From an uncultured Candidatus Saccharibacteria bacterium (GTDB taxonomy: Bacteria; Patescibacteriota; Minisyncoccia; Phycocordibacterales; UBA12088), in the NCBI GenBank assembly GCA_964567265.1, contig CAZMLK010000001.1, forward strand, positions 395,723 through 459,722: a stretch of 64,000 nucleotides of DNA, written 5' to 3'. Shown piece by piece: positions 5,164 through 58,745 of the stretch. A program made the position numbers and the translations under genes. The first letter of the stretch is position 1. Each line of letters starts with the position of its first letter. Below the pieces are notes generated by a model. It was given only the letters and a program-made list of their open reading frames with translations. It did no database searches and was not told the origin of the DNA.

Positions 5164-6462
5164 CTACAGCGACTTCTCCGGCACCCGGCCGCGGTCCCGC
5201 AGAGCCTCGGCAAGCCGCTCGACTCCGCGGAGAAATGCAGCATCACGGAGCGGGATGTTCCGGTTGGTATGGAGCTGCCATACGCCTTCAAAGGCGTCTT
5301 TCATGATCGGTTCCAATTTCGCCGCGATGTCTGCGCGCGACCAATAAAAGTGGGATCTATTCTGCACCCATTCGAAGTAGGATACGGTCACGCCGCCCGC
5401 ATTCGCAAGGATATCCGGTATGACGATGCATCCATTCTTCTCGAGGATCGCATCAGCTTCCGGCGTGGTAGGCCCATTTGCAAGCTCGAGAATGATTCCC
5501 GCCCGGACCTTCCCCGCATTCCCCGCATGGATCTGACCATCCAGGGCCGCAGGGATGAGGACGTCGCACGCAGCCTCGAGAAGCTCATCATTTGAAATAA
5601 AACGGACGTCCGTTCCCTTCAGGTCGCCGAAGCCATTTTTTGAAAGCTTCTCGAATGAGCCTGCTTTCTCTTTTTCCCCCGCGATCGCGATGGGATCGAA
5701 GCCCTTCTCGCACCAGAGTGCTCCGCTGCTGTCCGAAAGCCCGACGATGCGCGCGCCCTTCTCGTGCAGCAAGCGTGCCGCGTGGAATCCTGCGTTTCCA
5801 AAACCTTGGACTGCGACACAGAGCCCTTCGAAGGAGCGCTCCACTGACTCCAGGAGCGCTTCAAGTACATAGACACCTCCCTGTGCCGTGGCAGTATCCC
5901 TGCCACGGCTTCCGCCCACAGAAAGCGGCTTGCCGGTAATCATTCCTGGCTCGCTTTTTCCGACTACTTTTTCATATTCATCGAGCATGACCGCCATGAT
6001 GTGCGCGTTTGTGTAGACATCGGGCGCGGGAATATCGGTATCGACTCCGATATAGGGCGCAAATGCCCGAGCAAATGCCCGAGCGACGTTATTGATCTCG
6101 TCCGGAGTTGCTGATTTGGGATCGAACGCCACACCCCCTTTCGCGCCGCCAAGTGGAATTCCTACGACTGCGCATTTCATCGCCATCGCGGCAGCAAGCG
6201 CGGACACCTCATCCAGATCCGCTGCGGGATGGAACCGGATGCCACCCTTATAGGGACCGCGCGCGTTATTGAATTGTACGCGATATGCCTGGAGCTCCCG
6301 CGGCTCGCCGCCAATGATCACTGAAAGCGTTGCCGTCCGAACTGCATCGGGCTTCGAAAGAATATCTGCATATGCATTTCCCAAGCCAAGCGCTGCAAGC
6401 GCTTGCTCGAGACGGGTCAGATATTGCTCGAAAGCATTCTTGGAAACGGGAATTTCATCCAT
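5164..6462 (-). CDS. gdhA: NAD(P)-specific glutamate dehydrogenase
   Basis: GGAKGGVAFDPK active-site lysine motif and GFGNAG Rossmann motif; ~430 aa. Confidence 0.9.
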   Translation of the reverse strand: MDEIPVSKNAFEQYLTRLEQALAALGLGNAYADILSKPDAVRTATLSVIIGGEPRELQAYRVQFNNARGPYKGGIRFHPAADLDEVSALAAAMAMKCAVVGIPLGGAKGGVAFDPKSATPDEINNVARAFARAFAPYIGVDTDIPAPDVYTNAHIMAVMLDEYEKVVGKSEPGMITGKPLSVGGSRGRDTATAQGGVYVLEALLESVERSFEGLCVAVQGFGNAGFHAARLLHEKGARIVGLSDSSGALWCEKGFDPIAIAGEKEKAGSFEKLSKNGFGDLKGTDVRFISNDELLEAACDVLIPAALDGQIHAGNAGKVRAGIILELANGPTTPEADAILEKNGCIVIPDILANAGGVTVSYFEWVQNRSHFYWSRADIAAKLEPIMKDAFEGVWQLHTNRNIPLRDAAFLRGVERLAEALRDRGRVPEKSL

Positions 6463-6497: not shown

Positions 6498-8090
6498 TTA
6501 CGAAACGCGCGCCTCATCCTCCTTCTCTTTCAGGAAATTAAAAAATGCGTCGATGGTCCCGAGCACTTTCTTGAACGGCGTTTCCACCAGTGTATCAAGA
6601 ATCAGGACGAAAAGATTCAGGCGCGAGAACCTGAGAGAAAGCGCTCTGCCGATGCGGACCAGCGGAAGCACGAAAAGCGCCCGGAGCGCCCCTCCCCTCC
6701 CCTCTGTGCCGGAGAATACGTACCAGCGCGTGGCAATGACATTCAGTCGGAATCCGAAGTATGCGACCAGCGTGAGGAATGAGAGGAAGAGGAGGATGCC
6801 GACGATATCGAACTGAAGGAGCCTGAGCCCAGAGATAATGAGCCCGATACTGAAGAGGAAGAGCGCCAGGTACAACGCGCCGATGAAGAGAGGGGTGCTG
6901 CCTTCCGTCGATTTGAGTCGAAGCGGCACAGGCTCCTCATCAAAAAGCGCGGCCGCGACGCCGCGGACGATTTCCTTCGTATTCCGGGCGCCTGGCTGCT
7001 TGAACGTTTGCGTGATTCCAAGGAGCAGAAGGGGGTGGAAAAGCGCGTTCGTCGCGAGCGGCAGGTACTGCGGTTTCCCGTACACGAGCTGCTCGAACGG
7101 GAATTCGATGACGCCCGTCAGGATGATCTTCGTACAGAGGAGATAGACAACCGCGCGTGCGCCACCCTGTTTCGCGCGTGCGTATTCGAGGGCATAGTGC
7201 TGCTTCGCAAGCGTTTCGACCTCGGCCGCAAGCAGCGCCTGATCGCGGAACACGCGCTCGACATCGAGCCCATACCGCCTGAGGAGATCGATGATGATGG
7301 AATAAAAAATGCAGTCGTTGTGCAGCCGACCAGCGATACGCCCGTGGAGCGCGTCCGCAAGCATCGTATCAATGCTGTCGAGGAGGCGGATCAGCGCCTG
7401 CCCTTTCGGCACGTCGAGGTCTTCACTCCGTTCGAAGCCTGTCGCGAATTTCGTGAAGAGCGCATAGCGGAGCGCCATGGCGTCCTCACGCAGGAGCGAT
7501 TCCCGTACCCCGATATAGAGCTGGATATCGAATGGGATCTCCTTCCCGGCAGGCTCCTCGTCTATGAGCATGCTTCCCTGGCGTTCATGATAGAGCGATT
7601 CTGCGGCGGCCTCCCCTTCAGGAAACGGGGTGAAGAAGCGGTCGAGCTCGCAGGCTGCGAGATCAAGCATCGCGTCTTCTGCGCGTTTCCACACACGCGC
7701 GGCCTTTGGCGCGTAGAACAGGAGCGCGAGGTATTTCGAAAGGACGCTGGAGACGTAGCCTGCGGCGCTTTCGGGAACGGTGCGATTCGGGAGATAGCCG
7801 CCGCTGATGAGTTCGCGGACAAGATGCTTCCCCGCTTTTTGGAGATCCATATCCGCATCGAAATGGCGCTTGAGGATGCGGCGGAGCGCATGGCGGCGGA
7901 TCAGGTGATCATCCTTGTAATCGAGCGCGTAGCGCAGGCGCTCATACATGACGCCTGTGCGCTCCGTAACGGAATGGACCTCAATGGTCGCTTCCCTCCC
8001 CCATTCTTCGCTACCTCGAAGAGCCGCGACACTGGCAAGCTGTCGTTCGTATTCGAATAGGAGATAGGAAAAAGGTGCGGATCGCTCCAT
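6498..8090 (-). CDS. hypothetical protein, ~400-aa soluble N-terminal region plus 3 C-terminal TM helices
   Basis: Long ORF with a C-terminal hydrophobic block (LFIGALYLALFLFSIGLIISGL ... ILLFLSFLTLVAYFGF). No catalytic motif recognised. Confidence 0.5.
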   Translation of the reverse strand: MERSAPFSYLLFEYERQLASVAALRGSEEWGREATIEVHSVTERTGVMYERLRYALDYKDDHLIRRHALRRILKRHFDADMDLQKAGKHLVRELISGGYLPNRTVPESAAGYVSSVLSKYLALLFYAPKAARVWKRAEDAMLDLAACELDRFFTPFPEGEAAAESLYHERQGSMLIDEEPAGKEIPFDIQLYIGVRESLLREDAMALRYALFTKFATGFERSEDLDVPKGQALIRLLDSIDTMLADALHGRIAGRLHNDCIFYSIIIDLLRRYGLDVERVFRDQALLAAEVETLAKQHYALEYARAKQGGARAVVYLLCTKIILTGVIEFPFEQLVYGKPQYLPLATNALFHPLLLLGITQTFKQPGARNTKEIVRGVAAALFDEEPVPLRLKSTEGSTPLFIGALYLALFLFSIGLIISGLRLLQFDIVGILLFLSFLTLVAYFGFRLNVIATRWYVFSGTEGRGGALRALFVLPLVRIGRALSLRFSRLNLFVLILDTLVETPFKKVLGTIDAFFNFLKEKEDEARVS

Positions 8091-23324: not shown

Positions 23325-25730
23325 CTATGGAGTCGAAACTGCCCTGAGCATCGGCTCGATGCGGTCAGCAACCCGTGCATACCCGCTGGCATTCGGATGC
23401 ACCAAGTCGCTGCTCGTGAGGAACGGATTTCCCAGGACTCCTTTCAGGATATTCTCGACATACGCCGACTGCGTATCTCGTGCCACGTCCTTATACCGAT
23501 CATTGAGCGACGGGTTGAGGATGCCTCCGCCGAGACCGACCACGAGTACAACTGCTCCCTTCGCCTGGATGCGCTCCACAATGGTCTGCAGGTTCGAGAA
23601 TGTCTCAGCCCGTGAGACCGCGGGCACGCTGAGATTCGCGCCGATGCGGACAAGGATCAAGCGTATGCGTTCAGCAAAAGCCTTGTCGCCAATCGCGAGC
23701 GCTTCCTCATACATCCGGTGAAGCTCATCGTTCGCTCCGAGGAAGACAATGACGACTTTCGGATTCTTGGAAAGGACATCAGCGTCGAGGCGCGCGAGCG
23801 CCATCGAGGTATCGTTGCCGGACACGCCTGCATTCTGGATCGGCTTGCCGAGACGCTGCGAGAGCACGCTTACGTAGTCCTTTCCGGCAGGAGCACCGAC
23901 ACCGGAGGTCAGGCTGTCTCCGAGCGCGATAATATTCTGACCTTTTGATGGGTAGTTCTTGACCGGCCAGGGATTGCCTCCCGGATTCCCGCCGGTACCA
24001 CCCGTGGTTCCCCCGGTAGTACCGGTCGTTCCAGTAGTCCCTGTGGTGCCGGTCGTGCCTGTAGTTCCTGTAGTGCCCGTTGTCCCCGTGCTTCCGCCGC
24101 CGCCAACACGAATGCTGCCAGGACTCGCTCCAACTCGAGTGAACCCATCGTTGATGAATACGCGTGCCTCATAGATGCCATCAGCAAGTGAAGGAAAGGT
24201 CATCGATCCGGATGTTCCACCAGCTGGGATGTACTGCCATGCCGTGTACGAACGATCACCCTGCCCTGCTGCATAGATTCCCACCCAGTCTTTCGCATTG
24301 CGGCTCTGAGGTGCCTGCCAGTTCACGGTCACCGCGCCTCCAGACGGAACGGTTGCTGCTGCAAAGGCGACGGCATATCCGCCGGTACCGCCCGTCGTTC
24401 CTCCTGTGGTCCCTCCGGTCGTACCTGTGGTTCCCGTAGTACCGGTAGTTCCTGTCGTGCCTGTGGTTCCGGTAGTGCCCGTCGTTCCTGTGGTGCCAGT
24501 TGTCCCGCCCGTGGTGCCTCCCGTTCCTCCCATCGTAAATGCATTCGAGACCGCGACATGCGCACCCCCGCTGGTCACAAAATATCGTGCCTCATACACG
24601 CCCGGCTGGAAGCTTGTGAAATCAACGGCACCATCAGCAGATCCGATCGGAACATACTGCCACTTCCAATAGCCGCCATCGCTTCCAGAATTCGGCGTAT
24701 AGATGCCGATCCAGTCATGCGCTCCGACTGCAGGCGTGTGATAGGTCACATGCGCAACGCTGCCATTCACAGTAACTGAGAGCGAATATGAACCTCCGCC
24801 GCCGGTCGTTCCTCCTGTAGAGCCGCCCGTCGTACCTGTGGTTCCCGTAGTGCCCGTTGTCCCTGTCGTGCCAGTGGTCCCCGTCGTTCCAGTAGTACCA
24901 GTTGTGCCGGTTGTGCCCGTTCCGCCACCACCGCCAACACTGACAGAGCCAGGACTGGTCGCTGCACGCGTATATCCATTATTCAAATACAACCGCGCTT
25001 CATACTGGCCGTTCGCAAGTCCCGGAAAGCTGAGCGTTCCAGATGTCGCACCGCCGATGTACTGCCATGCCGTATACGAGCGATCTCCCTGGCCAGTCGC
25101 GTAAATGCCGACCCAATCTTGCGTACCGCGACTTGCGGGCGCCTGCCAGTTGACCACGACAGCACCTCCAGTCGGGACCGAAGCAGATGCGAACGAGACC
25201 GCATATCCTCCGGTACCGCCGGTGGTCCCGCCGGTAGTACCTCCCGTGGTCCCAGTTGTGCCGGTCGTTCCAGTCGTCCCCGTGGTACCGGTCGTGCCTG
25301 TTGTCCCAGATGTACCCGTCGTCCCAGTGGTTCCCGTAGTGCCTCCGGTTGTTCCCGTCCCTCCTCCGCCACCGTACGTGACCGAATTCGAGACTGCGAC
25401 ATGGCTATAGCCATTGGCGACAAGATACCGTGCTTCGTATGTGCCCGGATTGACGTTTAAGAAATCAATCGCTCCGTCTACCGCACCAGCCGGAACGTAC
25501 TGGTACAGGATGAATCCATGGTTGTCTGCTCCCACCGGAAAGAGTCCAATCCAATCCTGGTTGCCGGCCGTCGGCGCATGGTAGGTAACATGAATAATCC
25601 CGCCGGTGACAGTTGCATTCAACGTATAGCTTCCAACCTGCGCGTCAGCCCTTTCCACGGCTCCAAACCCAATGAGGGCGATCGCGGCTGAAAGAAGGAT
25701 TGTTGCCCTGATGGTGGTATGCATGGTCAT
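23325..25730 (-). CDS. secreted multi-domain protein: signal peptide, 4x ~90-aa repeat domain separated by (Thr-Gly)n linkers, C-terminal SGNH/GDSL hydrolase
   Basis: Signal peptide MTMHTTIRATILLSAAIALIG. Four repeats, each with W[IV]G[IL][FY]...[QK]Y...YEAR[YLV], alternating between two subtypes. TGTTGTTGTT linkers. C-terminal GDSLTSG, GANDE and DLVHPN motifs of the SGNH hydrolase family. Confidence 0.8.
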   Translation of the reverse strand: MTMHTTIRATILLSAAIALIGFGAVERADAQVGSYTLNATVTGGIIHVTYHAPTAGNQDWIGLFPVGADNHGFILYQYVPAGAVDGAIDFLNVNPGTYEARYLVANGYSHVAVSNSVTYGGGGGTGTTGGTTGTTGTTGTSGTTGTTGTTGTTGTTGTTGTTGGTTGGTTGGTGGYAVSFASASVPTGGAVVVNWQAPASRGTQDWVGIYATGQGDRSYTAWQYIGGATSGTLSFPGLANGQYEARLYLNNGYTRAATSPGSVSVGGGGGTGTTGTTGTTGTTGTTGTTGTTGTTGTTGTTGGSTGGTTGGGGSYSLSVTVNGSVAHVTYHTPAVGAHDWIGIYTPNSGSDGGYWKWQYVPIGSADGAVDFTSFQPGVYEARYFVTSGGAHVAVSNAFTMGGTGGTTGGTTGTTGTTGTTGTTGTTGTTGTTGTTGTTGGTTGGTTGGTGGYAVAFAAATVPSGGAVTVNWQAPQSRNAKDWVGIYAAGQGDRSYTAWQYIPAGGTSGSMTFPSLADGIYEARVFINDGFTRVGASPGSIRVGGGGSTGTTGTTGTTGTTGTTGTTGTTGTTGGTTGGTGGNPGGNPWPVKNYPSKGQNIIALGDSLTSGVGAPAGKDYVSVLSQRLGKPIQNAGVSGNDTSMALARLDADVLSKNPKVVIVFLGANDELHRMYEEALAIGDKAFAERIRLILVRIGANLSVPAVSRAETFSNLQTIVERIQAKGAVVLVVGLGGGILNPSLNDRYKDVARDTQSAYVENILKGVLGNPFLTSSDLVHPNASGYARVADRIEPMLRAVSTP

Positions 25731-25857
25731 GATAGTGATGACTCGTATGATAACGGATTCTTTCTAAAGGGATTATGAAGACAGAAGTGGGTTACCCCGG
25801 CCGAGCTGCCTGATTTTTGCTCGGGCACACAATACAACGTTTTTGAGGGATTGCATA

Positions 25858-25892
25858 GGAAAAGAGGCCGCGCGAAGCGCGGCCTCTTTTTG
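25858..25892 (-). terminator. terminator for beta-helix gene (agaggccgcgc-gaa-gcgcggcctct)
   Basis: GC hairpin with T-runs on both strands. Confidence 0.7.
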
Positions 25893-25911
25893 CTACATCG
25901 CACCAATCCAA

Positions 25912-28848
25912 TTATCGCATCACTCCCCGCGTCAGCGTCCCAAAATAGCCAGTACCCGCAGAGAGTCCTGCTGGTTCGAGGATATCTGCGACATGCGCGT
26001 TCTGAAAGAGGATGAGGGCTGCCTTAGTAGCAGGTCCGAAGAAATCAGTCTCGAATCCTGGCGACCCTGCTCCTACAGCGGACACTGTAAATCCATGTAC
26101 ATTCAAGTACATCTGAAGCTGACGGACATCTTCCCCGCGAGATCTGACTCTGAGATTGCGCGGGAAAGTCACTGACGTCATGGCAGGCGTCGTTGTTGAT
26201 ACCGAAAGATTTCCAAACACTTCATTGAGTTTCGCCAGCGTCAGCGGGCCGACGACACCATAGCCGGTCGTGCTCGGTGTGCCCGTGGTGACGATACCGT
26301 ACTTCGCTTGGAATCGTCGTACTGCGGCTTCCGTCAGCGCACCATAGAATCCGTTGACAATGGCTTCCGGGTACAGGGCAGCGTCTGAGGCAAAGAGTTG
26401 TTGCAAGGTGCGGACGTCTGGGCCCTGCATGCCGGGGAAGAGCGCGTTCGTGAAGATTGGACTCCTGCCTGTCGACGGCATCAACGGGGCAGGTTGTTGA
26501 TTGGAAGTACCAGGAATGGTCACCGCAGCTGAACAGACTGAGAAGGCGTTGCAGTATTTCACATAGAGCGTGCTTGTAGTATCAGGCCATGGGAGCGAAC
26601 TGGTTGCATTCACGTAGGTTGCAGTAGCGAACGAAGGGTCCGTGGAAATGGCAATCTTCGTGATATCCGTTCCGAATGAGAATGTGAGGATCCGTCCTGA
26701 CGGGATTGGCGTCGTTGACGTGGCAGCAAATCCTCCAGATGGACCCGTAGGGACTGGTGCACTTCCACCTCCTCCGCCCGAGGGTGGCAGGACGATATTC
26801 ACCGTTCGCGTTGACACCGCACTGTTCCCTGCCGTATCGGTTGCCGTGTAGGTAATGCGGTATGTTCCGACCGTGCCCACCGTCACTGTGTCCCCACCTG
26901 TGGTGACCGACACTGTTCCATCGACATCATCGGTCGCCGATGCGCCCGGGTCCGCAAAGCCCTGGCCGATGGTTTGAGTGATGGAGGCAGCTCCCGAAAG
27001 CGTAATGGTCGGCGCGACCGAGTCGGTATATTCGTACGCACCGATATCGCAGACACCCTGACGACTGACACCATTTTTGTCTGTCGTTGGGCACAGAGAA
27101 TCCGTGCCCGCATTGATGGCTGGGGAAGATGCGAGGAGGCGGTAATCACCCCCTGACACATCAGCCAATACGGGATCACTAGTCAAAGAATGCGACCCTA
27201 GAGAAAATCCCGACCCAGAGACTGACGCCGTTGCCGTATGTGCAATGAGGCTATAGTCTTCACTCACACTCGTCGCACCGGTTGTTTTCGAGATACCCGT
27301 CGCAAATCCATATATCAAATTGTTACGCAACGTAACGTTCCCTGTTGATTGGAGCGACATCGCTACGCCTGACTGCGACGGATTGATGAGGGTGTTGTTA
27401 TAGAACGAGAGCGCGGCCGCATCAAGCAACGTTACCAGTGCATTTGTTCCTGCGACTGTGGTGTATCCGAATACGTTTCCATACGCGATAATTGACGAGT
27501 TTTCAATATTTGTGACTGCACTTTTTTTATTGCCCCAAGCATACGAATTGGTAAGCCTGCCCCCTGACGTCTCGTGCCATGAGAATCCGTCACCATCGGA
27601 ACCAGATCCATCGACTCCATTGTTTGTAGATGTAGCATGATCGATGTTGATTGTGGGTCCATTATGAAATCCAAATCCATCATTCGTGTTGCTATCTGCG
27701 GTTGAATTTAAAATCGTTACGGTACCGCCAGTACCCGCGACAGCAACCCCGTTGGAACCAGTGACCGTGCCATTACTGTTGAATGTCGAACCGGACAATG
27801 TAAGGGTGTCACTTGATCCTCCCATGGTGACATTGATGCCAGCAAGACCGTTTGAACCCACGGTGAGATTTGAAAATCTTGACCCAGTTGACCCTGCCAG
27901 CATCAATATGCCGTCAGACGTATTGTTGGAGACCGTCGTCGTAGCAATGATTGCATTTGTTGGCTTCGAATCGAATCGGATTCCACGAGCAGTATTCCCA
28001 GTAACGGTCGAGTTTTTAATCGAAATTCCACTTGCGGTATTCAATATATATATTCCGTTCGAGCCGCAGCCCTGAATGGTAACTCCATCAATGACTGCTG
28101 TGGTGACATTATTCAAGATGAGGCAATCTCCTGAACCGCCTGTGATCGTAGAGGAGGTAATGGTGATATTTGAGCCAGCAGCCACAGAACTTCCAAACTT
28201 CATGCCGCTTGTTGAGGCGGTGATCGTGAGGTTTGAAAAAGTATCTCCTTGCGACTTGGTACCATTCAAGTTTATGCCGGTTGTAAAACCACTGACCGTA
28301 ATGTTGTCATATGTGCTCGCGGTACTGGTAGCATTGGTACTGATGACGATGGCCTGCGTTGTTGTGCCGCTAATTGAGAGATGGTTGAAATTAAGTCCGG
28401 TAAACGTACCTGAAAATACAAAGATGCCTGATTCGGACGGACTTCGTAAGACAAGATTTTGAATCGTCAGATACGATGCGCTGTTGCGAATATCGAATAT
28501 CCTATTCTGGCTTCCGGCATTCAGAATGGGATTGGCACCAGTGCCGTATGCATCAAAAACAATTGGATTTCCAGATGTACCCGAATCGTCAAACAGCGTT
28601 ATCTTTATATTTGAGAACGTTTCACCTTTCTTGAATAAAATCTGGTCTCCTGCCACGAAAGTGCGCGCGTTGATTGGTGTAGCCGACTGCCACGGCGTTC
28701 CACTGCTCGTACCATTATTCGAATCGCTGCCAAGAGTGGCGTCCACATAGTATGTCGCCGCGCTTGCCAGCGACGGCACTGCAGTCACAGCAAACAACGC
28801 TATTGCTGCAAATACAAACGCGATGTTTTTTGGGTAATTTTGAGGCAT
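25912..28848 (-). CDS. secreted right-handed parallel beta-helix repeat protein with Ig-like domain and two C-terminal peptidoglycan-binding (PG_binding_1-like) domains
   Basis: Signal peptide. Dozens of degenerate PbH1-like turns (NxxGxGI/NIT/GxS ladder). Ig-like TVSVTTGGDTVTVGTVGTYRITYTATDTAGNS. Two C-terminal repeats of the form G.DVR.LQ..L...G.....DG.FG..T..A...FQ. Confidence 0.8.
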   Translation of the reverse strand: MPQNYPKNIAFVFAAIALFAVTAVPSLASAATYYVDATLGSDSNNGTSSGTPWQSATPINARTFVAGDQILFKKGETFSNIKITLFDDSGTSGNPIVFDAYGTGANPILNAGSQNRIFDIRNSASYLTIQNLVLRSPSESGIFVFSGTFTGLNFNHLSISGTTTQAIVISTNATSTASTYDNITVSGFTTGINLNGTKSQGDTFSNLTITASTSGMKFGSSVAAGSNITITSSTITGGSGDCLILNNVTTAVIDGVTIQGCGSNGIYILNTASGISIKNSTVTGNTARGIRFDSKPTNAIIATTTVSNNTSDGILMLAGSTGSRFSNLTVGSNGLAGINVTMGGSSDTLTLSGSTFNSNGTVTGSNGVAVAGTGGTVTILNSTADSNTNDGFGFHNGPTINIDHATSTNNGVDGSGSDGDGFSWHETSGGRLTNSYAWGNKKSAVTNIENSSIIAYGNVFGYTTVAGTNALVTLLDAAALSFYNNTLINPSQSGVAMSLQSTGNVTLRNNLIYGFATGISKTTGATSVSEDYSLIAHTATASVSGSGFSLGSHSLTSDPVLADVSGGDYRLLASSPAINAGTDSLCPTTDKNGVSRQGVCDIGAYEYTDSVAPTITLSGAASITQTIGQGFADPGASATDDVDGTVSVTTGGDTVTVGTVGTYRITYTATDTAGNSAVSTRTVNIVLPPSGGGGGSAPVPTGPSGGFAATSTTPIPSGRILTFSFGTDITKIAISTDPSFATATYVNATSSLPWPDTTSTLYVKYCNAFSVCSAAVTIPGTSNQQPAPLMPSTGRSPIFTNALFPGMQGPDVRTLQQLFASDAALYPEAIVNGFYGALTEAAVRRFQAKYGIVTTGTPSTTGYGVVGPLTLAKLNEVFGNLSVSTTTPAMTSVTFPRNLRVRSRGEDVRQLQMYLNVHGFTVSAVGAGSPGFETDFFGPATKAALILFQNAHVADILEPAGLSAGTGYFGTLTRGVMR

Positions 28849-28963
28849 GTAACAAATTCAATGAGTAAGCGTTTTGTATTCTCGAAGACGGATTTGAAAC
28901 GTAGTCATTGCCACTGATTCACTATACCAGCTGCATTACGACAGAGGTATTCCGAATGGGGAT

Positions 28964-29012
28964 TACGGCGGAAAAAACGGAAAAAGGCGGCCGCGCTTCG
29001 CGCGGCCGCCTT
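28964..29012 (-). terminator. terminator for 29023..30603 gene
   Basis: aggcggccgcg-cttc-gcgcggccgcct hairpin followed on the minus strand by TTTTTCCGTTTTTTCC. Confidence 0.8.
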
Positions 29013-29022
29013 TCGCCTCCAC

Positions 29023-30603
29023 CTACATCGTTATCTGCACCGCATTCCCCGCCTGATCGTATCCATTCGCCTTGAAGTAACGGATCTCGTAGCTGCCGGG
29101 AGTGACATTCTGGAATGTGTAGGTGCCCGATGGGCCGGTCGCATACGACCATGCAAGATACGAGCGGTTGCCTGCCCCGGTCGCATAGAGCCCGATCCAG
29201 TCGGTCGTCGTGAACGCAGTACTTGGGCCCACCCAGCTCGCGATGATTGTATTTCCAGATCTCGATGCGGAGAGTGAATATCCGGCTGCGGCAGAAAGAT
29301 CAGCTCGTGCGACTGCCGCCTTCGCCTGTACGGTGATTTCCGGAGTAACTGCAACTGATGTGTATTTATTATTCTTCAGATACCGGATCTCGAAGGTGCC
29401 GGTGCGGTCGAGCGTGAATGTCATGTCGCCGCTCGCAGCATCCCCGGTGTATTTCCAGGTCCCGTAGCTCCGGTTCGACGCGCCCTTCTCATAGATCGCG
29501 ATCCAGTCCTGCGTATTCGACGAGCCTCCTGGCGTCTGCCAGTGCACGGTCACGGTATCACTAACTCGCGGGGTCTGAGAGGAAATCGTGAGCGAGTATC
29601 CGGCTGCCGCTGCAGCGGAGCCCAGTGTATAGGTCGCTGAGGTCGCACGCCGGGTGTAGCCGTTGTTCTCGAAGGTACGCGCCTCATATGCGCCGGGCTC
29701 GAGCGAGTCTGTATTGAAACTGAGCGTTCCCGAATTGCCGGATGGAAGATACTGCCACAGAAGATAGGAGGAATCAGCAGCGCCGACCGGATAGAGCCCG
29801 ACCCAATCCCGCGAACTGCGGCCGGTCGGCGCCTCGAACCGCACCGAGAGCGTATTCCCGGAAATGCCATTGATGGCGAGTGCGTAGTTCCCTACGGGTG
29901 CAGCCGCAGCGCTTCCGGTCGTACCGGTGGTTCCGTCTTCTGTTCCCGTCCCGCCACCACCAGTCACGATCTCGCGCCACGGACCGCTGGGCACATTGCC
30001 CGCGTCCACGAACCGCCAAGACACCAGCATCTGGTCGCCGCCGTTCAAGCAGTCGCGCATGGCGGGAGAGAGATCGATGCCGATTGATTGGCGCGGTCCC
30101 GCGCTTCCGAATACGTACGCAATATCATCCTCACCGTATGGTCCGACATCTTCCCACTGGCCGTAGCAGGTCGCACCGTTCGAGGTGACCGCCACCCAAT
30201 GATTCTTGAGCTGCGAAACGCTCTTGCTCGCGCCGGATTGATACCACGGGATCTGGCTCGCGTTCGATTTCTGGGATCCGTTATTGCCGATGTCGTTATA
30301 CGGAAGCGCGATATAGAACGGATTCTCCTTCGGAGTGAACGCGCACGGGCGGTAGCCGCATCGATTGTCGGGATCGTCTTCCCCGCCGTAATGAGTTGCC
30401 CAGAGCTCGTCCCATGCGCTCGGGACGTTCGAGATGAAGCCGTTGTCTGAGGTCGCGCCTTCGCCTACCCAGAAGACAGTCGCGTTGACCGTTTTCGGGT
30501 TCGTTTCGGTCGCGGTGATGGCTGCTGCCGGGTATGGATAGGCTGCTCCGAGTAGAAGGAGGAATACGGCTAGCGATGCGGCTCTAATGCCCTTCCGATT
30601 CAT
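29023..30603 (-). CDS. secreted protein: N-terminal double-psi beta-barrel-like (RlpA/expansin-type) domain + 3 copies of the same ~90-aa repeat domain found in 23325..25730
   Basis: Signal peptide. N-domain with YGGEDD...C...C.F......LPY...HWVAVT.NGATCYGQWEDVGP pattern. Three repeats with WVGLY/WIAIY/WIGLY ... YEAR/FEIRY. Confidence 0.7.
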   Translation of the reverse strand: MNRKGIRAASLAVFLLLLGAAYPYPAAAITATETNPKTVNATVFWVGEGATSDNGFISNVPSAWDELWATHYGGEDDPDNRCGYRPCAFTPKENPFYIALPYNDIGNNGSQKSNASQIPWYQSGASKSVSQLKNHWVAVTSNGATCYGQWEDVGPYGEDDIAYVFGSAGPRQSIGIDLSPAMRDCLNGGDQMLVSWRFVDAGNVPSGPWREIVTGGGGTGTEDGTTGTTGSAAAAPVGNYALAINGISGNTLSVRFEAPTGRSSRDWVGLYPVGAADSSYLLWQYLPSGNSGTLSFNTDSLEPGAYEARTFENNGYTRRATSATYTLGSAAAAAGYSLTISSQTPRVSDTVTVHWQTPGGSSNTQDWIAIYEKGASNRSYGTWKYTGDAASGDMTFTLDRTGTFEIRYLKNNKYTSVAVTPEITVQAKAAVARADLSAAAGYSLSASRSGNTIIASWVGPSTAFTTTDWIGLYATGAGNRSYLAWSYATGPSGTYTFQNVTPGSYEIRYFKANGYDQAGNAVQITM

Positions 30604-38865: not shown

Positions 38866-40455
38866 TCAAGCAGAGACTTCACGGAGACGCGCCACAAGGA
38901 AGTCTCGGTCCAGGACAGAGAGGAACCAGCCTGCCTTCGGACCGGAATCCTTGCCGAGGAATGACTGATAGAGCGCGCCGAAGAATGCCTTTGCATCAAG
39001 TCCGCTTTCCTTCCGAATCTCGTGGAGCGCGGTGTGAAGTCCTTCCCCAGTGAGAACTTCATTTGATTCGACATATGCAAGCACCTTCCCGAGCGCCGCC
39101 TTCTGCTCGCCTGAAATATTCTTCGCGTCCTCAGGAACGTCGCCTGTCTGGAGCTCGAACTTGAAGTCATCGTCTGCGTACTTGTCGAGCCAGAAGCGCG
39201 CATATTTTGCACGGAGGGCGGCTTCTGCGCGATCGTCTTCGGTGAGCGGACTTCCTTTCATGCGTTCGACTTCCTGGTACAGATCCATGTGCGGCATCTG
39301 CACGATGAACGCGACCTGCGAGAATCGCGGCAAGAAATGCTCGGGGATCATTTCACGCTCCTCAGGGAAATGGATGAAGCGGAAGAGACGCGTATCATCG
39401 TCTTCAACGCCGCTCCACGCCTTCTCCGCGAGCTTGTCGAATTGGTCGAAGAGTATCGGGATCGTATCACCTGCTGGATCGACATTCACTTGCTGGTTGA
39501 TGTCCTTGCCGAGAAGCGCGAGGCGGAAGATATGGGGCGGCAGAAGATCAGCGACATCGCGTGCAGCAGACGCATTCCCTTTCGAAGAAGACATCTTCTT
39601 GCCGCCGATCAGGAAGAACTCGTACGGCACGTTGAATGGCGGCTCGTGGCCAAAGACTTGCTTCGAGATAGCGTTCGCGACCTCGCGTGAGCCACCTTTC
39701 GTGGAGTGGTCCTTCCCCGCACCTTCGATCGCGACATTCATGACTTTGAATTTCGCCGCCCACTCTACTTTCCACGGAAGCTTCGCGCGGCCGTCGAACG
39801 GCGAGACGCTTCCTTCATGCGCGCACCCTTCCGCCCACTTCACCATGTTCGGCATGCAGACATACGAAACCCTTTCACCATCAAATCCGGTGACCTTGGT
39901 GGTGCCGATCTTGCCGCAGTTCTCGCAGATGACCTGGAGCGGATACCAGTCGTCAGGCTTCACTGAGTTTGAAATTTCCTTGTAGAGACGGCGAATGACG
40001 TCTGCGTGTTCAAGCGCGAGGCGGATGACGTCGTTGAATTCGCCCGCGCGATACTTGTCGCTGAGGCGATAGTAGCTTGGGTGGAACCCGGCTTCCTCGA
40101 TGACACCGGTGAACTCGAGTCCGTAGTACTCGGCGAAATTCTTCGCGTTGCCGACGGGAGATGGGATCGTAAAGAGCGGCTGGCCCATGTACTTGCGATA
40201 GACGGCCTCATCGAGGTACGCCGGCATGCCGTCCATCGGGTCCATGTCGTTGATCTCATAGAAAAACTCGTTGTCGACGCCCGCTTCCGTAAGCGCCTCA
40301 GAAATGACTCCGTGGATGGCTGCGCCGCGCATCGAGCCCACGTGTACCCGACCAGAGGCAGTCTTCTCATCGCGTATGACGAGTTTCTCTCCCGCTTTGA
40401 TGCGGGTTGCCAGCTTTTCTTGTATGTCGCCCGTAAGGCGGTCTAGCCAGAACAT
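38866..40455 (-). CDS. lysK: lysyl-tRNA synthetase, class I
   Basis: N-terminal FWLDRL...HVGSMRG (HIGH-like) and the KMSSSKGN motif diagnostic of class-I LysRS. ~530 aa. Confidence 0.8.
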   Translation of the reverse strand: MFWLDRLTGDIQEKLATRIKAGEKLVIRDEKTASGRVHVGSMRGAAIHGVISEALTEAGVDNEFFYEINDMDPMDGMPAYLDEAVYRKYMGQPLFTIPSPVGNAKNFAEYYGLEFTGVIEEAGFHPSYYRLSDKYRAGEFNDVIRLALEHADVIRRLYKEISNSVKPDDWYPLQVICENCGKIGTTKVTGFDGERVSYVCMPNMVKWAEGCAHEGSVSPFDGRAKLPWKVEWAAKFKVMNVAIEGAGKDHSTKGGSREVANAISKQVFGHEPPFNVPYEFFLIGGKKMSSSKGNASAARDVADLLPPHIFRLALLGKDINQQVNVDPAGDTIPILFDQFDKLAEKAWSGVEDDDTRLFRFIHFPEEREMIPEHFLPRFSQVAFIVQMPHMDLYQEVERMKGSPLTEDDRAEAALRAKYARFWLDKYADDDFKFELQTGDVPEDAKNISGEQKAALGKVLAYVESNEVLTGEGLHTALHEIRKESGLDAKAFFGALYQSFLGKDSGPKAGWFLSVLDRDFLVARLREVSA

Positions 40456-43944: not shown

Positions 43945-43950
43945 ATGGAT

Positions 43951-44253
43951 TTAGTTCCTGCCGATCTGGAGATACCGTCTCGAAAGCGGCACGAGGGAAG
44001 CGGCGAGGAGCGCGAGCGTCGTCATCAAAAAATGCGTCTCGATGCCCACGACCATGGTCCCGCCGTAGAGCACGTCCGCAACGACGGCAACGGCGATGAG
44101 CTCGTACCAGCCGAAGTATACCAGCGTTCCCAACGTCGCGGGGATCGCGAGCCACCACGGCGCCAGGAACGCGGCAGCGAAGAGCAGCGCATCAATGCCG
44201 ACTCTTCTTGGCAAACCGGAATCCTTTTTTTGCGGACGACGTCGTTCAAGCAT
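43951..44253 (-). CDS. mreD: rod shape-determining protein MreD-like small membrane protein
   Basis: 100 aa, ~3 TM helices, position between mreC and mrdA. Confidence 0.5.
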   Translation of the reverse strand: MLERRRPQKKDSGLPRRVGIDALLFAAAFLAPWWLAIPATLGTLVYFGWYELIAVAVVADVLYGGTMVVGIETHFLMTTLALLAASLVPLSRRYLQIGRN

Positions 44254-44271
44254 GAGAAAACGGATGCTGCA

Positions 44272-45090
44272 TTACTGCGCGCTTGTCGAGGTCGCACCCG
44301 CGGGCGCGATTTCGACCGTACGGAGCTCGCGGATGTTGACGGGACTTTTCGCGAGCGCGGTCTCGAACGAATCAGCAGCCTTCGAGCGCAGCGCGCCGAC
44401 GAGCGCGACCAAGGAGCTCGTGATTCCAGGAAGCGCGATCGGAGAATTGGTAGCAGCGATCGTACCCCGCGGAAGCTGCACGATGAAATTCCCGCCGCCC
44501 TGCCCGATCAAGGAGACGGACACCGAGGTCGTCGCCTGGAGGATATCCGCGCTGGTGCTGACTCCGGGAGACGAATACAGCGTGACCCGCGCACGGCTCG
44601 GCCCCACCTCTTCGACCGTGCCGAGCGCGAGCGCGCCGTAGGCGTACACCTTGTCCCCTTTCCGGATGCCACTCTCCTGCCCCGCGTCGATGACGAGCGA
44701 ATCATACGGAATCTCGGGCGGCCGGAGCAGGATGCCCGCGCGGATGCGCGCCCTCTCGGGATTGCGTCCCGCGAATGCGCGCAGGGACTCGTTTTCAGCC
44801 TCAAGAAGTGTCATCGCGACGCTTTTCGCGTTTGCATCGCGGAGTTCCTGCTTCAGCGCGGCATTCTCGTCAACGAGCGCGCGCTTGGAGCGGAGGAGCT
44901 CGATGACGGTACCCGATGACGCGACCGTGCCCGATTCTATCGATGCGACCGGGCGGAGCACGCCGAACACGAGGTTCTCGAGGAACGCCGGCGGCTTCGC
45001 GAAGAAGAAAAGCGCAACGACCAAAAGCGCTCCCATCACTGCGAGCTTGTAGCGGCTGAATGCTGTTTTACGTTCCTGGAGAGAGCGCAT
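44272..45090 (-). CDS. mreC: rod shape-determining protein MreC
   Basis: N-terminal TM, coiled-coil, C-terminal beta domains (GDKVYAYG...). Overlaps the mreB 3' end by 23 nt. Confidence 0.8.
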   Translation of the reverse strand: MRSLQERKTAFSRYKLAVMGALLVVALFFFAKPPAFLENLVFGVLRPVASIESGTVASSGTVIELLRSKRALVDENAALKQELRDANAKSVAMTLLEAENESLRAFAGRNPERARIRAGILLRPPEIPYDSLVIDAGQESGIRKGDKVYAYGALALGTVEEVGPSRARVTLYSSPGVSTSADILQATTSVSVSLIGQGGGNFIVQLPRGTIAATNSPIALPGITSSLVALVGALRSKAADSFETALAKSPVNIRELRTVEIAPAGATSTSAQ

Positions 45091-46141
45091 CTTCGCTTTC
45101 TATGAGCACGTCCGTATGCTGGTCGAGGGTTTCAATGATAACACCGGTTCCGCGCACGACGGAGGTCAACGGATCGTTCGAGCGGTACACCGGGATCTTG
45201 AGGATCGCCGTCAAAAATTCGGGCATGCCGCGGATGAGCGCGCCGCCGCCGACCAAGTGGATGCCGCGCTGCATCACGTCCGCCAGGACTTCAGGCGGCG
45301 TGGTCTCGAGGACCTCGCGGACGGATTCGACCAAGGTATCGATGGAATGGGAAATCGCTTCGCGGATATCGGCGTCTGTAATGACGACCTCACGCGGGAG
45401 GCCGGTCACGAGATCGCGGCCGCGTACGGTCGCTTCGATCGGCGCATCGCCCGGAGATACGGAACAAGCAGCAATCTTGAGCTCCTCCGAGGTCTTCTCG
45501 CCGATCAATATCTTGAATTCGCTCCGGATGTAGGAGGCGATGTCGGCATTCAGCTTGTCGCCCGCGACGCGGAGATTCTTCGCGCGCACGATGCCGGAAA
45601 GCGAGATGACGGCGATATCGGTCGTGCCGCCGCCGATGTCTATGATCATGCTGCCGATCGGCGCATGGATCGGCAGCTTGATGCCGATCGCGGCAGCCAT
45701 CGGCTCCTCGACGATGTAGACCTCGCGGGCGCCGGCATTCTTCGCTGCATCGCGGACCGCCCGCGTCTCGACGTTCGTGATGCCAGACGGCACGCCGATG
45801 ACGACGCGCGGGCCGAAGATCGTGCGGCGTCCTTCCTGCGCTTTGTTGAGGAGGTATGAAAGCATCTCTTCGGTGACCTCGAAGTCCGAGATCACGCCAT
45901 CAACGAGAGGGCGGACGGCCGTGATGTGGGTCGGCGTGCGGCCGAGCATGTCCTTCGCCTGCGCTCCGACGGCGACCACCTGGCCCGTCTTCTGGTTGAT
46001 GGCGACGACGGAGGGCTCATTGAGGACGATGCCCTTGCCGCGAACATACACGAGCGTGTTCGCCGTGCCGAGATCGATGCCGATGTCATTCGAGAAGAGG
46101 TGCGAGAACCTCCCGAACATTTTTTTGAGTCTTTCTACCAT
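45068..46141 (-). CDS. mreB: rod shape-determining actin homolog MreB
   Basis: IGIDLGTANTLVYVRGKGIVLNEPSVVAI phosphate-1 motif and other actin-fold motifs. Start could be the second Met (MFGRF). Confidence 0.9.
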   Translation of the reverse strand: MVERLKKMFGRFSHLFSNDIGIDLGTANTLVYVRGKGIVLNEPSVVAINQKTGQVVAVGAQAKDMLGRTPTHITAVRPLVDGVISDFEVTEEMLSYLLNKAQEGRRTIFGPRVVIGVPSGITNVETRAVRDAAKNAGAREVYIVEEPMAAAIGIKLPIHAPIGSMIIDIGGGTTDIAVISLSGIVRAKNLRVAGDKLNADIASYIRSEFKILIGEKTSEELKIAACSVSPGDAPIEATVRGRDLVTGLPREVVITDADIREAISHSIDTLVESVREVLETTPPEVLADVMQRGIHLVGGGALIRGMPEFLTAILKIPVYRSNDPLTSVVRGTGVIIETLDQHTDVLIESEDALSPGT

Positions 46142-49871: not shown

Positions 49872-50312
49872 ATGGGGCCATTCTAACGTAGATTCCGCTT
49901 CCTGTGTATGGAAAACAAAAACGCTCCGACATGGGAGTCGAAGACGTTGGTTGGGATGGAGGGGTTGCGCATGGGCAACCGCCTCCTCCCTGATCTGTAT
50001 GGATATGCTCGGGCCTGAACACGGTATGAGCGTCTCAGGAAGTCCGATGATTCCAAGGGTGACACACACCCTTTCATAAGGCCTGACCGGATGTATAACC
50101 CGGCAACGGGGTCCAGAGATTCTACTTCATGGCACATCTCCTCGGCTGCGTCCGGCCTGAGACCGGTTGTAGCGCTTGGTGTTGCAGTCGTGGCTGGTTT
50201 GGCCTTCCTCCTATATTTGCTGGAAAAAAGATATCACGTGATTGACTTATTGTCAAGCTCATTTTCTATTGTGGGATTTGGGGCAGATGAGTCATACATA
50301 GAGCCGTTTTTT

Positions 50313-51023
50313 CTACTGTTCAAAAAACGGACAGATGAGCGCGACATATTCGAGGAGGATCTTCGGCGAGGCGCCCGGGTCGGAGATGTGGCGCTTCGCG
50401 AGCATGACGGCTTCCAGCGTTTCCTGGAGCGCTTGGCTCGGGACCCCCCCGCTCGCCGCGAGGCGGATCCTCGCGGCGAGCGCCTGCTCAAGTCCGCCGA
50501 GGAAATCGACTGCGTGCGATCGGTCCTTCGTATCCGAAATCGTACCGAGGAGCTTCTTCAACTTGTCGAGGCGATTTGCAGGAGTGAGTGCAAGAAATTG
50601 CATTGCCGCTTCCGTGTCGCTGACATGCGGCATCGAAATGATCTGCATGCGCGAGCGGATGGTCGGGAGGACAAGGTCGGCGTTCGGGACGAGGAGAAAA
50701 AAATGAAGGCCCTGTGGCGGCTCTTCGAGGATCTTGAGGAGCGCGTTCTGCGCCTGCGCCGTCAGGATCTTCGCGCCGATCACGAACACGCGCCGCGCTC
50801 CGAGGGGGCGAATATATGCATCTTCCTTGAGTTCCCTGCTTTCTTCAACGCTCAGGGTCTCGAACATGCGGCCATAGTAATCGGGATTTCCAATGACAGA
50901 GCCCTTCAGGACCTCCTCGACGAAGGAAATGACGAGGGGCTCGTTGACCATAAGATCGCCCGGCACCAAGTACGCATGATGCAAGCTGCCTGTTTCCCGA
51001 TACTGCTTTCGAAGCTGCTCCAT
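50313..51023 (-). CDS. holB: DNA polymerase III delta' subunit-like (clamp-loader AAA+ fold)
   Basis: HAYLVPGD, FLLVPNADLVLPTIRSRMQII and ALLKILEEPP motifs. The overlapping plus-strand ORF 50091..51092 is judged to be an antisense artefact. Confidence 0.65.
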   Translation of the reverse strand: MEQLRKQYRETGSLHHAYLVPGDLMVNEPLVISFVEEVLKGSVIGNPDYYGRMFETLSVEESRELKEDAYIRPLGARRVFVIGAKILTAQAQNALLKILEEPPQGLHFFLLVPNADLVLPTIRSRMQIISMPHVSDTEAAMQFLALTPANRLDKLKKLLGTISDTKDRSHAVDFLGGLEQALAARIRLAASGGVPSQALQETLEAVMLAKRHISDPGASPKILLEYVALICPFFEQ

Positions 51024-51118
51024 TACCGCTCCAGCATACTGGAGATATGCACTTTGCTGAAATTGACACACTTCATGAAAGTTGTATGTTGAAGAGAGCA
51101 CATGAAAGGAGTTGCGAC

Positions 51119-51938: not shown

Positions 51939-51970
51939 ACCCCGCACATCCATGCGGGGTTCTTTCTTAT
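51938..51970. terminator. terminator shared by convergent genes (accccgca-catccatg-cggggt + TTCTTTCTTAT)
   Basis: Hairpin overlapping both stop codons. Confidence 0.6.
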
Positions 51971-55618: not shown

Positions 55619-56632
55619 CTACCGCTTCGCGATGATGCTCTTCTTGTAGACGTCGAGATGGTTGAGCGCGATGCCGGTCCCCTTCACCACGCAATACGGG
55701 GCCTCTTTCGCAAGAACCGCCTTCACGCCCGTGCGACGGAGCACGAGTTCCGGGAAATTGCGAAGCTGCGAGGTGCCGCCGGTCATGATGATGCCCTTGT
55801 CGATGATGTCGGAGGCAAGCTCGGGCGGCGTCTCCTGGAGCACATCCTTGATCGCCTTGATCATTTCCCGCAAGTCGCGCGCGGTCGCTTTCACGATCTC
55901 ATTCGTCTTCACTTCTGCAGTGCGCGGAAGGCCGGTCAAGAGATCCCGGCCGCGGATCGACATGATGAGTTCCTCTTCAAGAGGGACGGCCGAGCCGACC
56001 TCGATCTTTATGCGCTCAGCGGTCTTGTCGCCGATCGCGAGATTGAAGGTCTTCTTCACATAATCGGTGATCGCATGATCGAGGCGGTTCCCGGCGCATT
56101 TCACGGACGTCGAGGCGACGATGCCGCCGAGCGAGATCACGGCGACGTCGATCGTGCCGCCGCCGATGTCGACGATCATATGCCCACGCGGCTCATGGAT
56201 CGGAATGCCGGCGCCGATTGCCGCAAGAATCGGTTCCTTGACCACGTACGCATTCTTCGCACCCGCGTTCACTGCGGCTTCGACGACGGCGCGGCGCTCG
56301 GTCGAAGTGACGCCCGCTGGAACCGAGATCATCACGTCCGGGCGGAACAGCGTCCACTTCCCCATCGATTTGCGGATATAGTAGCGGAGCATCGCTTCGG
56401 TGACGCGATAATCGGCGATGACGCCATCTTTCATCGGGCGGTACGCGATGATCGATTCCGGAGTGCGTCCGATCATCTCCTTCGCGTCGTTGCCGACCGC
56501 GAGGATCTTGTTGTCGCTGACGGAGACGGCGACCACCGACGGCTCATTGAGCACGATGCCCGCGCCCGGCACGAAGACGAGTGTCGTCGTGGTCCCGAGG
56601 TCGATCCCGATTTTCTTGGTGAAAAATGACAT
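55619..56632 (-). CDS. second MreB/Mbl-family actin homolog
   Basis: KKIGIDLGTTTTLVFVPGAGIVLNEPSVVAV plus the full set of actin-fold motifs. Start trimmed to MSFFTKK. Confidence 0.8.
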   Translation of the reverse strand: MSFFTKKIGIDLGTTTTLVFVPGAGIVLNEPSVVAVSVSDNKILAVGNDAKEMIGRTPESIIAYRPMKDGVIADYRVTEAMLRYYIRKSMGKWTLFRPDVMISVPAGVTSTERRAVVEAAVNAGAKNAYVVKEPILAAIGAGIPIHEPRGHMIVDIGGGTIDVAVISLGGIVASTSVKCAGNRLDHAITDYVKKTFNLAIGDKTAERIKIEVGSAVPLEEELIMSIRGRDLLTGLPRTAEVKTNEIVKATARDLREMIKAIKDVLQETPPELASDIIDKGIIMTGGTSQLRNFPELVLRRTGVKAVLAKEAPYCVVKGTGIALNHLDVYKKSIIAKR

Positions 56633-56736
56633 GGTGTCGCCTAGGCAGTATACCTGCTTGCGCTTTGCTGGTCGTTGTTGACATATTGGACTTAATATGT
56701 TTTTATATCTCTCAGACAAACACAGGAGGACCTCCC

Positions 56737-58336: not shown

Positions 58337-58468
58337 AGTACCAGTATCTCGGAATACTAGCGAACCGGATTTTCACCTGCAAGGTTCATGAAAAAAGCGC
58401 GGCCGGATTGACAGCACTCTTGAAAAACGTTTTTATCGCATATGGAACTTGTACGGAGGAGGTGTGTA

Positions 58469-58687
58469 ATGCGAATCCACGAACTGCCGGTGCCGACAAC
58501 TCCACATGTAGACACTATTCCCTCATCGGATTGTGGTCCTGGCGACGACGAAGGCTTGCTACGCCGGGATCCGAGCCAGTGCGATCATCTCTGGATACCA
58601 ACCACCGACGACGGCACGGAAGGCTGCCCGTTCTGCAGTTCTCAGAGGCGTGGAGAGCCGGTGATGGAAGTGCCCGACGAGAGATAG
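58469..58687 (+). CDS. small Cys4 zinc-ribbon-like protein (72 aa)
   Basis: GGAGGAGG Shine-Dalgarno motif 7 nt upstream of the ATG; promoter-like TTGACA-17-TTTTAT (58408-58436); Cys pattern CGPG...CDH...GCPFC; terminator downstream. Confidence 0.5.
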   Translation: MRIHELPVPTTPHVDTIPSSDCGPGDDEGLLRRDPSQCDHLWIPTTDDGTEGCPFCSSQRRGEPVMEVPDER

Positions 58688-58706
58688 AGAGTATTCGAGG
58701 ACCATT

Positions 58707-58738
58707 CACCGCTCCCAGGGGGCGGTGTTTTCTTTTTG
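58707..58738 (+). terminator. rho-independent terminator (caccgctccc-a-gggggcggtg + TTTTCTTTTTGG)
   Basis: Hairpin and T-run 20 nt after the stop of the zinc-ribbon ORF. Confidence 0.7.
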
Positions 58739-58745
58739 GAAAATG

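Follow-up and report, generated by a model that had tools for sequence, protein, structure and literature searches.

Linkers of modular secreted enzymes, of which the Pro/Thr- or Ser/Thr-rich and often O-glycosylated linkers of bacterial and fungal cellulases are examples, connect independently folding modules for binding with a catalytic domain. They are made of small hydrophilic residues and no hydrophobic ones, disorder is predicted for them, and they are poorly conserved in sequence and length. In this study, four Gly/Thr (G/T) tracts of an 801-amino-acid (801-aa) protein with an SGNH hydrolase domain were analyzed. The protein is encoded within a stretch of 64,000 nucleotides (nt) from an uncultured Candidatus Saccharibacteria bacterium (GenBank assembly GCA_964567265.1, contig CAZMLK010000001.1), and this whole stretch is referred to below as the window. 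The tracts are like the enzyme linkers in position, residue type, predicted disorder and poor conservation; they differ in that they consist of Gly and Thr with essentially no Pro, are unusually long and follow a regular (GTT)n pattern. The linker of a modular secreted hydrolase is the nearest functional analogy. We consider it probable (about 0.75) that the tracts are ordinary disordered Gly/Thr inter-domain spacers of a secreted modular enzyme that are prone to insertions and deletions (indels) over evolutionary time.

[quoted passage not shown] That region is built of ACN-GGN cassettes with degenerate, informative silent sites and is interpreted as a flexible stretch between two globular domains; its alleles arise by deletion or duplication of several cassettes at once, and in another species a degenerate pentapeptide repeat replaces the dipeptide (PMC4109182). 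The exchange of dipeptide for pentapeptide parallels the (GTT)n of the window protein and the GGTTT of its orthologue. However, period encodes a eukaryotic nuclear clock protein whose length is polymorphic within populations and mutates at roughly 10^4 times the rate of point mutations, whereas the differences reported here were found between strains at 5-10% divergence, and neighbouring units avoid having codons in common.

Three other systems deserve comparison. In Periscope proteins, the length of a repetitive stalk sets the projection of a domain and varies between strains (PMC8201768). These proteins vary by long, highly identical globular-domain repeats through homologous recombination, whereas the domains of the window protein are 31-69% identical and the varying part is a disordered linker; membership of the Periscope group in its published sense was rejected, as the domains are not highly identical repeats (72% over 279 nt at best). 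The collagen-like regions of BclA and Scl likewise contain Gly-X-Y triplets with Thr (PMC10470788), but each forms one long helix beside a trimerising domain, whereas four short segments stand among globular domains here. The contingency loci of pathogens also carry tandem repeats inside genes for surface or secreted proteins. Their repeats are long, perfect and usually not multiples of three, and they act as on/off switches in clonal populations; the window tracts, in contrast, are imperfect, in frame and scrambled in their codons.

Layout of the protein and its four linkers

The protein reads, from its N-terminus, as a signal peptide, four immunoglobulin-like (Ig-like) beta-sandwich domains with four G/T linkers, and a C-terminal SGNH hydrolase domain. 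The hydrolase domain was matched by Pfam PF13472 (E = 1.5e-22, 81.4 bits against a cutoff of 32.9); the match, which is shared by PF13472 and PF00657, spans aa 600-791, and the motif ALGDSLT is invariant across the family alignment. By these matches the protein is assigned to the SGNH/GDSL hydrolase family. In the N-terminal segment MTMHTTIRATILLSAAIALIGFGAVERADA a hydrophobic core is accompanied by a basic residue and an A-x-A motif, and the segment, read by eye, is a putative signal peptide; no membrane or wall anchor was noticed on reading the sequence of the 801-aa protein. The domain borders were set with a hidden Markov model (HMM) profile, built with repeats taken both from the window protein and from the neighbouring 526-aa protein, which places the four domains at aa 34-119, 175-265, 314-400 and 451-542. 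The features of the gene are as follows (ORF, open reading frame):

23325..25730, minus strand: gene of 801 aa with a secreted-protein layout (ORF; Pfam PF13472; full-length homologues)
25641..25730, minus strand: signal-peptide-like N-terminal segment (read from sequence)
25374..25631, minus strand: beta-sandwich domain 1, type A (domain HMM, aa 34-119)
25206..25373, minus strand: G/T linker 1, 56 aa, aa 120-175, 11 GT[TS] core units, one of them GTS (scan for G/T/S runs)
24936..25205, minus strand: beta-sandwich domain 2, type B (AlphaFold2 and PDB match)
24789..24935, minus strand: G/T linker 2, 49 aa, aa 266-314, core (GTT)10 (scan for G/T/S runs)
24531..24788, minus strand: beta-sandwich domain 3, type A (domain HMM; two-domain model)
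24378..24530, minus strand: G/T linker 3, 51 aa, aa 401-451, core (GTT)10 (scan for G/T/S runs)
24105..24377, minus strand: beta-sandwich domain 4, type B, with 69% of its aa identical to domain 2 (domain HMM)
23988..24104, minus strand: G/T linker 4, 39 aa, aa 543-581, core (GTT)8, from domain 4 to the catalytic domain (scan for G/T/S runs)
23325..23987, minus strand: SGNH/GDSL hydrolase domain, stop codon included (Pfam PF13472, PF00657)
25105..25410, plus strand: spurious antisense ORF, (VVP)n over linker 1 (ORF list)

A preliminary description of this DNA had placed four G/T linkers of 35-50 residues between the domains of the SGNH protein; they were found where it put them, and its length range is roughly right (56, 49, 51 and 39 residues). 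The linkers contain only Gly, Thr and rare Ser, and the runs fall exactly between the HMM-defined domains. Each begins with a GGGGG-type stretch, passes through a core of 8-11 GT[TS] units and closes with an GGTTGGTTGGTGG-type end. Together they make up 195 of the 801 residues (24% of the protein), and at 0.36 nm per residue their contour length would be about 70 nm if fully extended. G/T-type runs of at least 10 residues were absent from every other ORF of the 64-kb window. In an AlphaFold2 model of domain 2, linker 2 and domain 3, both domains were modelled with a predicted local distance difference test score (pLDDT) above 90, and the linker (model residues 96-137) had a pLDDT of 39-49 without secondary structure; the spacers are predicted to be disordered. 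Thus placed between folded domains, the tracts are hydrophilic and of low complexity, and their length and sequence are poorly conserved while the domains are conserved. The spacers would presumably serve reach and flexibility, and they may be O-glycosylated. No glycosyltransferase was present among the 30 window ORFs scanned, which says little about glycosylation of the linkers, and a literature search for Gly/Thr-rich linkers by name returned no match.

The regular position of Gly allows a different reading, in which the (Gly-Thr-Thr)8-11 cores are collagen-like Gly-X-Y rods, trimeric and perhaps O-glycosylated on Thr, with the number of units setting the length of a stalk. In each core Gly recurs every three residues over a length of 24-33 residues, the glycosylated collagen-like region of Bacillus BclA has a strain-specific number of triplets (PMC10470788), and Pfam Collagen gave a faint match. 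However, this match (PF01391) scored only 11.3 and 9.1 bits where the gathering threshold is 27.2, the tracts lack Pro and charged residues, the GGTTGG and GGGGG flanks break the triplet register, and no trimerisation domain was recognised. The monomer model is a coil with a pLDDT of about 40, though a triple helix could not appear in a model of a single chain. Furthermore, the linkers of the closest orthologues, P0001 and P0006, are of GGTTT type or irregular, and those of other relatives are rich in Pro, Asp or Asn. As the orthologue linkers do not have Gly at every third position, it is therefore the composition and not the triplet that is conserved. On the Pfam score and the orthologue pattern, membership of the collagen family was rejected, and collagen-like rods are regarded as extremely unlikely.

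Arrangement of synonymous codons in the tracts

Tandem Repeats Finder reported arrays with periods of 9, 18, 27 and 36 nt in all four tracts (71-85% matches; 73% for period 9). In the preliminary description these arrays were runs of near-identical 9-mers and a classic substrate for slipped-strand or recombinational length variation. The units proved to be far less alike than that: the 39 core units comprise 29 different 9-mers, and adjacent units are mostly identical at six of nine positions, which are the positions fixed by the amino acids. In 25 of the 35 adjacent pairs all three wobble positions differ, so that no codon is shared. When synonymous codons were shuffled within each tract, with the protein and the codon usage of the tract kept, 17.1 +/- 2.9 such pairs were expected (P = 0.005), and a position-specific null gave the same outcome. 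Over the four tracts the same codon recurred three codons later at 24 of 148 positions (37.2 +/- 5.0 expected, P = 0.003-0.004), and within the cores alone in-register codon identity was 12 of 105 (22 expected, P = 0.005); no depletion was seen at lags of 1 or 6 codons in the permutation test.

The exact repeats within the tracts are correspondingly short. The longest direct repeats are 8, 9, 13 and 8 nt in linkers 1 to 4, against 12.0 +/- 2.0 nt for permuted codons in linker 1, and the longest exact stretch common to two tracts, which occurs in linkers 2 and 3, measures 23 nt (17.2 +/- 2.7 nt under the null, P = 0.06). No tract contains a perfect repeat of two units, because the synonymous positions are scrambled and neighbours share fewer codons than expected by chance. 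Judged by this codon arrangement, the 9-bp periodicity of the DNA is a consequence of the (Gly-Thr-Thr)n periodicity of the protein, with the synonymous sites apparently arranged against repetition. Lacking perfect two-unit repeats, the tracts would therefore be ill suited to frequent mispairing of slipped strands or to recombination that depends on RecA.

A tract of another kind served as a positive control. P0003 is an unrelated 628-aa protein whose tract (TGTTGTTGG)n at aa 438-490 is encoded by nearly perfect 27-nt repeats (L090-L094, gene 501-2387), and five samples from a single study carry this tract without any difference. At its 9-aa period the in-register codon identity was 26 of 38, above the 18.2 +/- 2.5 expected (P <= 0.001), and the permutation test therefore detects young repeats when they are present. 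This signal has the character of a recently duplicated 27-nt repeat, and on sequence grounds the P0003 tract is, as a candidate for a young and unstable repeat, far stronger than the window linkers.

Two causes of the scrambling are plausible. Perfect neighbouring units may have been lost by slippage so that mixed arrays persist, or selection may have favoured a stable coding sequence; selection of the latter kind is described for simple repeats in prokaryotic genes (PMC1378130; PMC3315296). The idea that codon usage is flatter within the linkers than genome-wide was also considered and was discarded, since the effect was significant against a crude ORF background but not against five confident genes (P = 0.08, 0.37).

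The periodicity of the protein also accounts for an ORF on the other strand. The VVPVVP reading that the preliminary description had called spurious is real as a reading and spurious as a gene. It comes from the plus strand (ORF 25105..25410), being the reverse complement of the ACN-GGN-ACN run of the gene, and is judged spurious because it is the minus-strand frame that has the Pfam SGNH match and full-length homologues.

Length variation among relatives

All compared sequences were consensus short-read metagenome assemblies. In a homologue search with the full protein, G/T words swamped the list and three matches were scored; with the linkers removed, 29 matches were obtained. The linker-free protein found one distant locus among metagenome contigs. 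A profile scan of genome contigs with the SGNH domain was too generic (600 stretches, with unrelated SGNH hydrolases) and gave L009 (Paceibacteria) as the only family relative. Look-ups for exact copies of the 978-aa and 526-aa neighbour proteins found no record. A look-up with YqeY led to a 98.9%-identical strain (L006), whose contig breaks off within the SGNH domain and reaches none of the linkers.

Outside the species, the homologue closest to the window protein is P0001 (607 aa), which is 47% identical to the full-length query over 77% of its length and 69% identical in the SGNH domain, and has G/T linkers of a GGTTT-like pattern. P0006 (619 aa), from the same cluster, shares 98% protein and 95.3% nt identity with P0001; its only length differences are +17 aa in linker 2 and -5 aa in linker 3. 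At the DNA level there are two indels only, of 51 and 15 nt, both in frame, both within linkers, and both inside contigs (34 kb and 6.7 kb) with intact reading frames. The 51-nt segment lies in a block otherwise about 1% diverged and starts with the 11-nt ACCGGAGGTAC; the same 11 nt recur directly after it, which is the pattern that a deletion or duplication between short direct repeats would leave. The indel of 15 nt corresponds to a single GGTTT unit. No indels were found in the conserved neighbour genes for purine DNA glycosylase, YqeY and RmuC of the P0001/P0006 locus; a small hypothetical ORF between the neighbour genes does have indels.

P0001 and P0006 show no difference over 132 nt of linker 1. 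The lack of substitutions there was considered as a sign of constraint and this was rejected, as it is explained by a mosaic block of low divergence (gene nt 100-1000). In the L007 and L008 genes (nt 1-1900), divergence is mosaic, with about 1% at nt 100-1000, about 15% at nt 1000-1200 and then 2-8%; this suggests recombination between strains inside the gene.

A second lineage is represented by L003, which was reached via the 526-aa neighbour (92% protein identity) and is about 88-92% identical to the window in nt. Its contig enters the orthologous gene for 148 codons. The first 24 residues of linker 1 are identical in the two; L003 then reads ...GTTGTSGTT-GGTTGG where the window has six more GTT units. 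The final 34 nt of L003 align with the window gene 54 nt downstream of where collinearity would place them (32 of 34 identical; next best 25 of 34), so that its linker 1 is 54 nt shorter, which is six units and a multiple of 9. In the window the junction is flanked on both sides by ACA[T/A]CTGGGAC.

Across the wider family the architecture is kept (two to seven beta-sandwich domains plus SGNH), with linkers of 2-56 aa whose composition varies by lineage. They are rich in Pro, Asp and Glu in P0007, P0008 and L009, rich in Asn and Pro in P0012 and Gly-rich in P0013; G/T-rich linkers occur only in the window protein and the P0001 clade. The window linkers are the longest in the sample (39-56 aa against 2-45 aa in relatives). 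Domain number (2 to 7) differs only between distant homologues. The seven near-identical family pairs (at least 99.4% identity) had equal tract lengths and are too close to inform, and one length difference among cluster members is a C-terminal truncation.

Taken together, the sequence comparisons support the view that related strains differ in linker length through in-frame indels, all of which lie in the tracts. The preliminary description had anticipated such differences in strain comparison, in multiples of 9; the differences were there (54 nt in L003, 51 and 15 nt between P0001 and P0006), one of them a multiple of 9 and two not. Its further suggestion of hypervariability is not supported, as there is no two-unit perfect repeat, codon identity lies below chance and much of the tracts is unchanged at 5-10% divergence; none of the sequence hallmarks of a fast slipped-strand locus is present in the tracts, and the indels seen are blocks of several units between microhomologies of 7-11 nt.

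In its strongest form that suggestion makes the tracts contingency-type loci, in which frequent 9-bp slippage would alter linker length from cell to cell within a population and so make the enzyme's reach phenotypically heterogeneous. Tandem periodicity at 9, 18, 27 and 36 nt is present, the length differences of the relatives lie only in the tracts and in frame with one of 54 nt, and contigs of related strains break at or in the gene, which could reflect population heterogeneity. However, neighbouring units share fewer codons than chance and form no perfect pair, long stretches of tract are unchanged at 5-10% nt divergence, and of the three indels, those of 51 and 15 nt are no multiples of 9 and extend across several irregular units. 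With a 9-nt unit in frame and all indels in frame, there is no on/off switch, and the contig breaks fit low coverage or the internal A-B-A-B domain repeat equally well. Moreover, according to published surveys, the mutability of repeats by indels climbs steeply with the length of the perfect repeat, and the most mutable types are avoided in coding regions (PMC3315296); this too counts against frequent slippage. We consider hypervariability of this kind unlikely.

The tract lengths or strain differences could also be products of mis-assembled repetitive short reads. All compared sequences are assemblies of that kind, related-strain contigs end at or in the gene, and two records with the exact 801-aa protein are probably one sample. 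Nevertheless, the exact repeats (up to 23 nt between linkers and 13 nt within them) are shorter than assembler k-mers and reads and leave each tract uniquely resolvable, the window agrees with an independent Logan assembly at 100% over 14.9 kb, and the P0001/P0006 indels are interior to contigs with frames intact. The L003 junction lies inside one 31-mer with a unique TCT codon and must exist in the reads, the k of the assembler being 31. Mis-assembly is unlikely, and we give it a very small chance. Contigs of related strains stop at or in the gene in L002 (33 nt past the 978-aa gene), L003 (inside linker 1, 5255-5699) and L006 (SGNH domain); low coverage, internal repeats or population heterogeneity could be the cause.

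Several observations weigh against the interpretation of the tracts as stable, codon-scrambled spacers that change by rare block indels. Strain sampling is very sparse, with three indel events from two lineages, and the L003 contig ends about 20 nt past the inferred junction, so that one length difference is readable but not the full linker length. The codon-scrambling signal is moderate (P about 0.005), and among the orthologues it recurs only in P0006, at its own 5-residue lag (6 of 51 against 12.7 expected, P = 0.016), and not in P0001. At lag 9 there is a slight, non-significant excess of codon identity (P = 0.08), and linker 3 has a weak trace of higher-order 27/36-nt periodicity (P = 0.03); past block duplications may be the source of part of the pattern.

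As ordinary spacers, the tracts would tether four SKICH/HECW_N-like Ig-like modules and an SGNH esterase in beads-on-a-string style. Rare replication slippage or illegitimate recombination between direct repeats of 7-11 nt inside the tracts might lead to gain or loss of multi-unit blocks in frame, and related strains and species would end up with spacers of different length and pattern. We infer slippage as the mechanism of length change. A bolder version, which is speculative and in our judgement improbable, takes the spacers as a tuned measuring tape of a probably episymbiotic bacterium with a small genome: their total length would set the reach of the esterase and modules into the partner's or the cell's own envelope, block indels would retune it between strains, the scrambling would have been selected for stability, and O-glycosylation of Thr could stiffen the tracts into rods.

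Domains, genomic setting and significance

Weak summed SKICH and HECW_N Pfam matches cover the N-terminal two thirds of the 801-aa protein. Domain 2, modelled by AlphaFold2 with an alignment of 50 domain copies, is a seven-stranded beta-sandwich (mean pLDDT 97.5); the solved structure that matches it best is human HECW2 in its N-terminal domain (template modelling score 0.69), followed by generic Ig-like folds. The four domains are 31-69% identical to one another in protein and stand in the order A-B-A-B, domain 1 resembling domain 3 and domain 2 resembling domain 4. The best internal DNA repeat is a 279-nt direct repeat of 72% identity (24228-24506 and 25056-25334, spacing 828 nt), which together with the domain order points to an old duplication of a block of two domains plus linker. 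Linkers 2 and 3 are 82% identical over 119 nt, and this likeness, which includes the 23-nt exact stretch, could be a route to loss of domain 3; the closest orthologue, P0001, has three domains.

The gene is part of a housekeeping region and is flanked on one side by genes for RmuC, a P-type ATPase and YqeY. On the other side lie a 978-aa protein with beta-helix, Ig-like and two PG_binding_1 domains, the 526-aa protein, and then murE, PBP, mraW and mraZ. The 526-aa protein (29023..30603) consists of a Cys-containing N-terminal domain and three SKICH/HECW_N-like beta-sandwich copies. Shorter versions of the linkers had been described in it; this holds for one short tract, and the other linkers are Ala-rich:

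29911..29964, minus strand: short G/T tract TGGGGTGTEDGTTGTTGS of the 526-aa protein, aa 214-231 (sequence, domain HMM)

This tract sits between the N-terminal domain and the three beta-sandwich domains, which are of the same family, and in the 92%-identical relative it shows substitutions and no indel. Three adjacent genes for secreted proteins with an apparent relation to the cell wall (23325-30603, minus strand) stand beside the murE-PBP-mraW-mraZ cluster of cell-division and cell-wall genes, and a peptidoglycan-directed role of the three-gene group is plausible. The named relatives of the 801-aa protein belong to Candidatus Kaiserbacteria and Paceibacteria genomes, which points to a likely Patescibacteria origin of the window.

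Other observations were made elsewhere in the window. Two full-length MreB/Mbl paralogues (45068-46141 and 55619-56719, minus strand) occur within 10 kb, near genes for a PBP2-like protein, a MurA-like protein (EPSP_synthase family) and an M50 protease. The lysyl-tRNA synthetase (38866-40455, minus strand) is of the class I type (PF01921), which is unusual among bacteria and fits the context of a small-genome candidate phylum. A 936-aa ORF (51967-54777, minus strand) has a weak match to HerA/DUF87 ATPases, and neighbouring ORFs of 180-630 aa are without a Pfam match, for example 6498-8090, 43945-44919, 50091-51092, 58408-59382 and 61256-63154.

On present evidence this is an ordinary linker and no new mechanism. 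The case is a caution that the periodicity of amino acids mimics tandem repeats in DNA and yields spurious antisense ORFs. The mutational heat of such tracts depends on the synonymous sites and can be checked by a simple codon-permutation test, which told the scrambled, stable window tract from the young 27-nt repeat of P0003. If it is true that spacer length matters for reach, proteins of this family would be candidates for the study of surface interactions in Patescibacteria.

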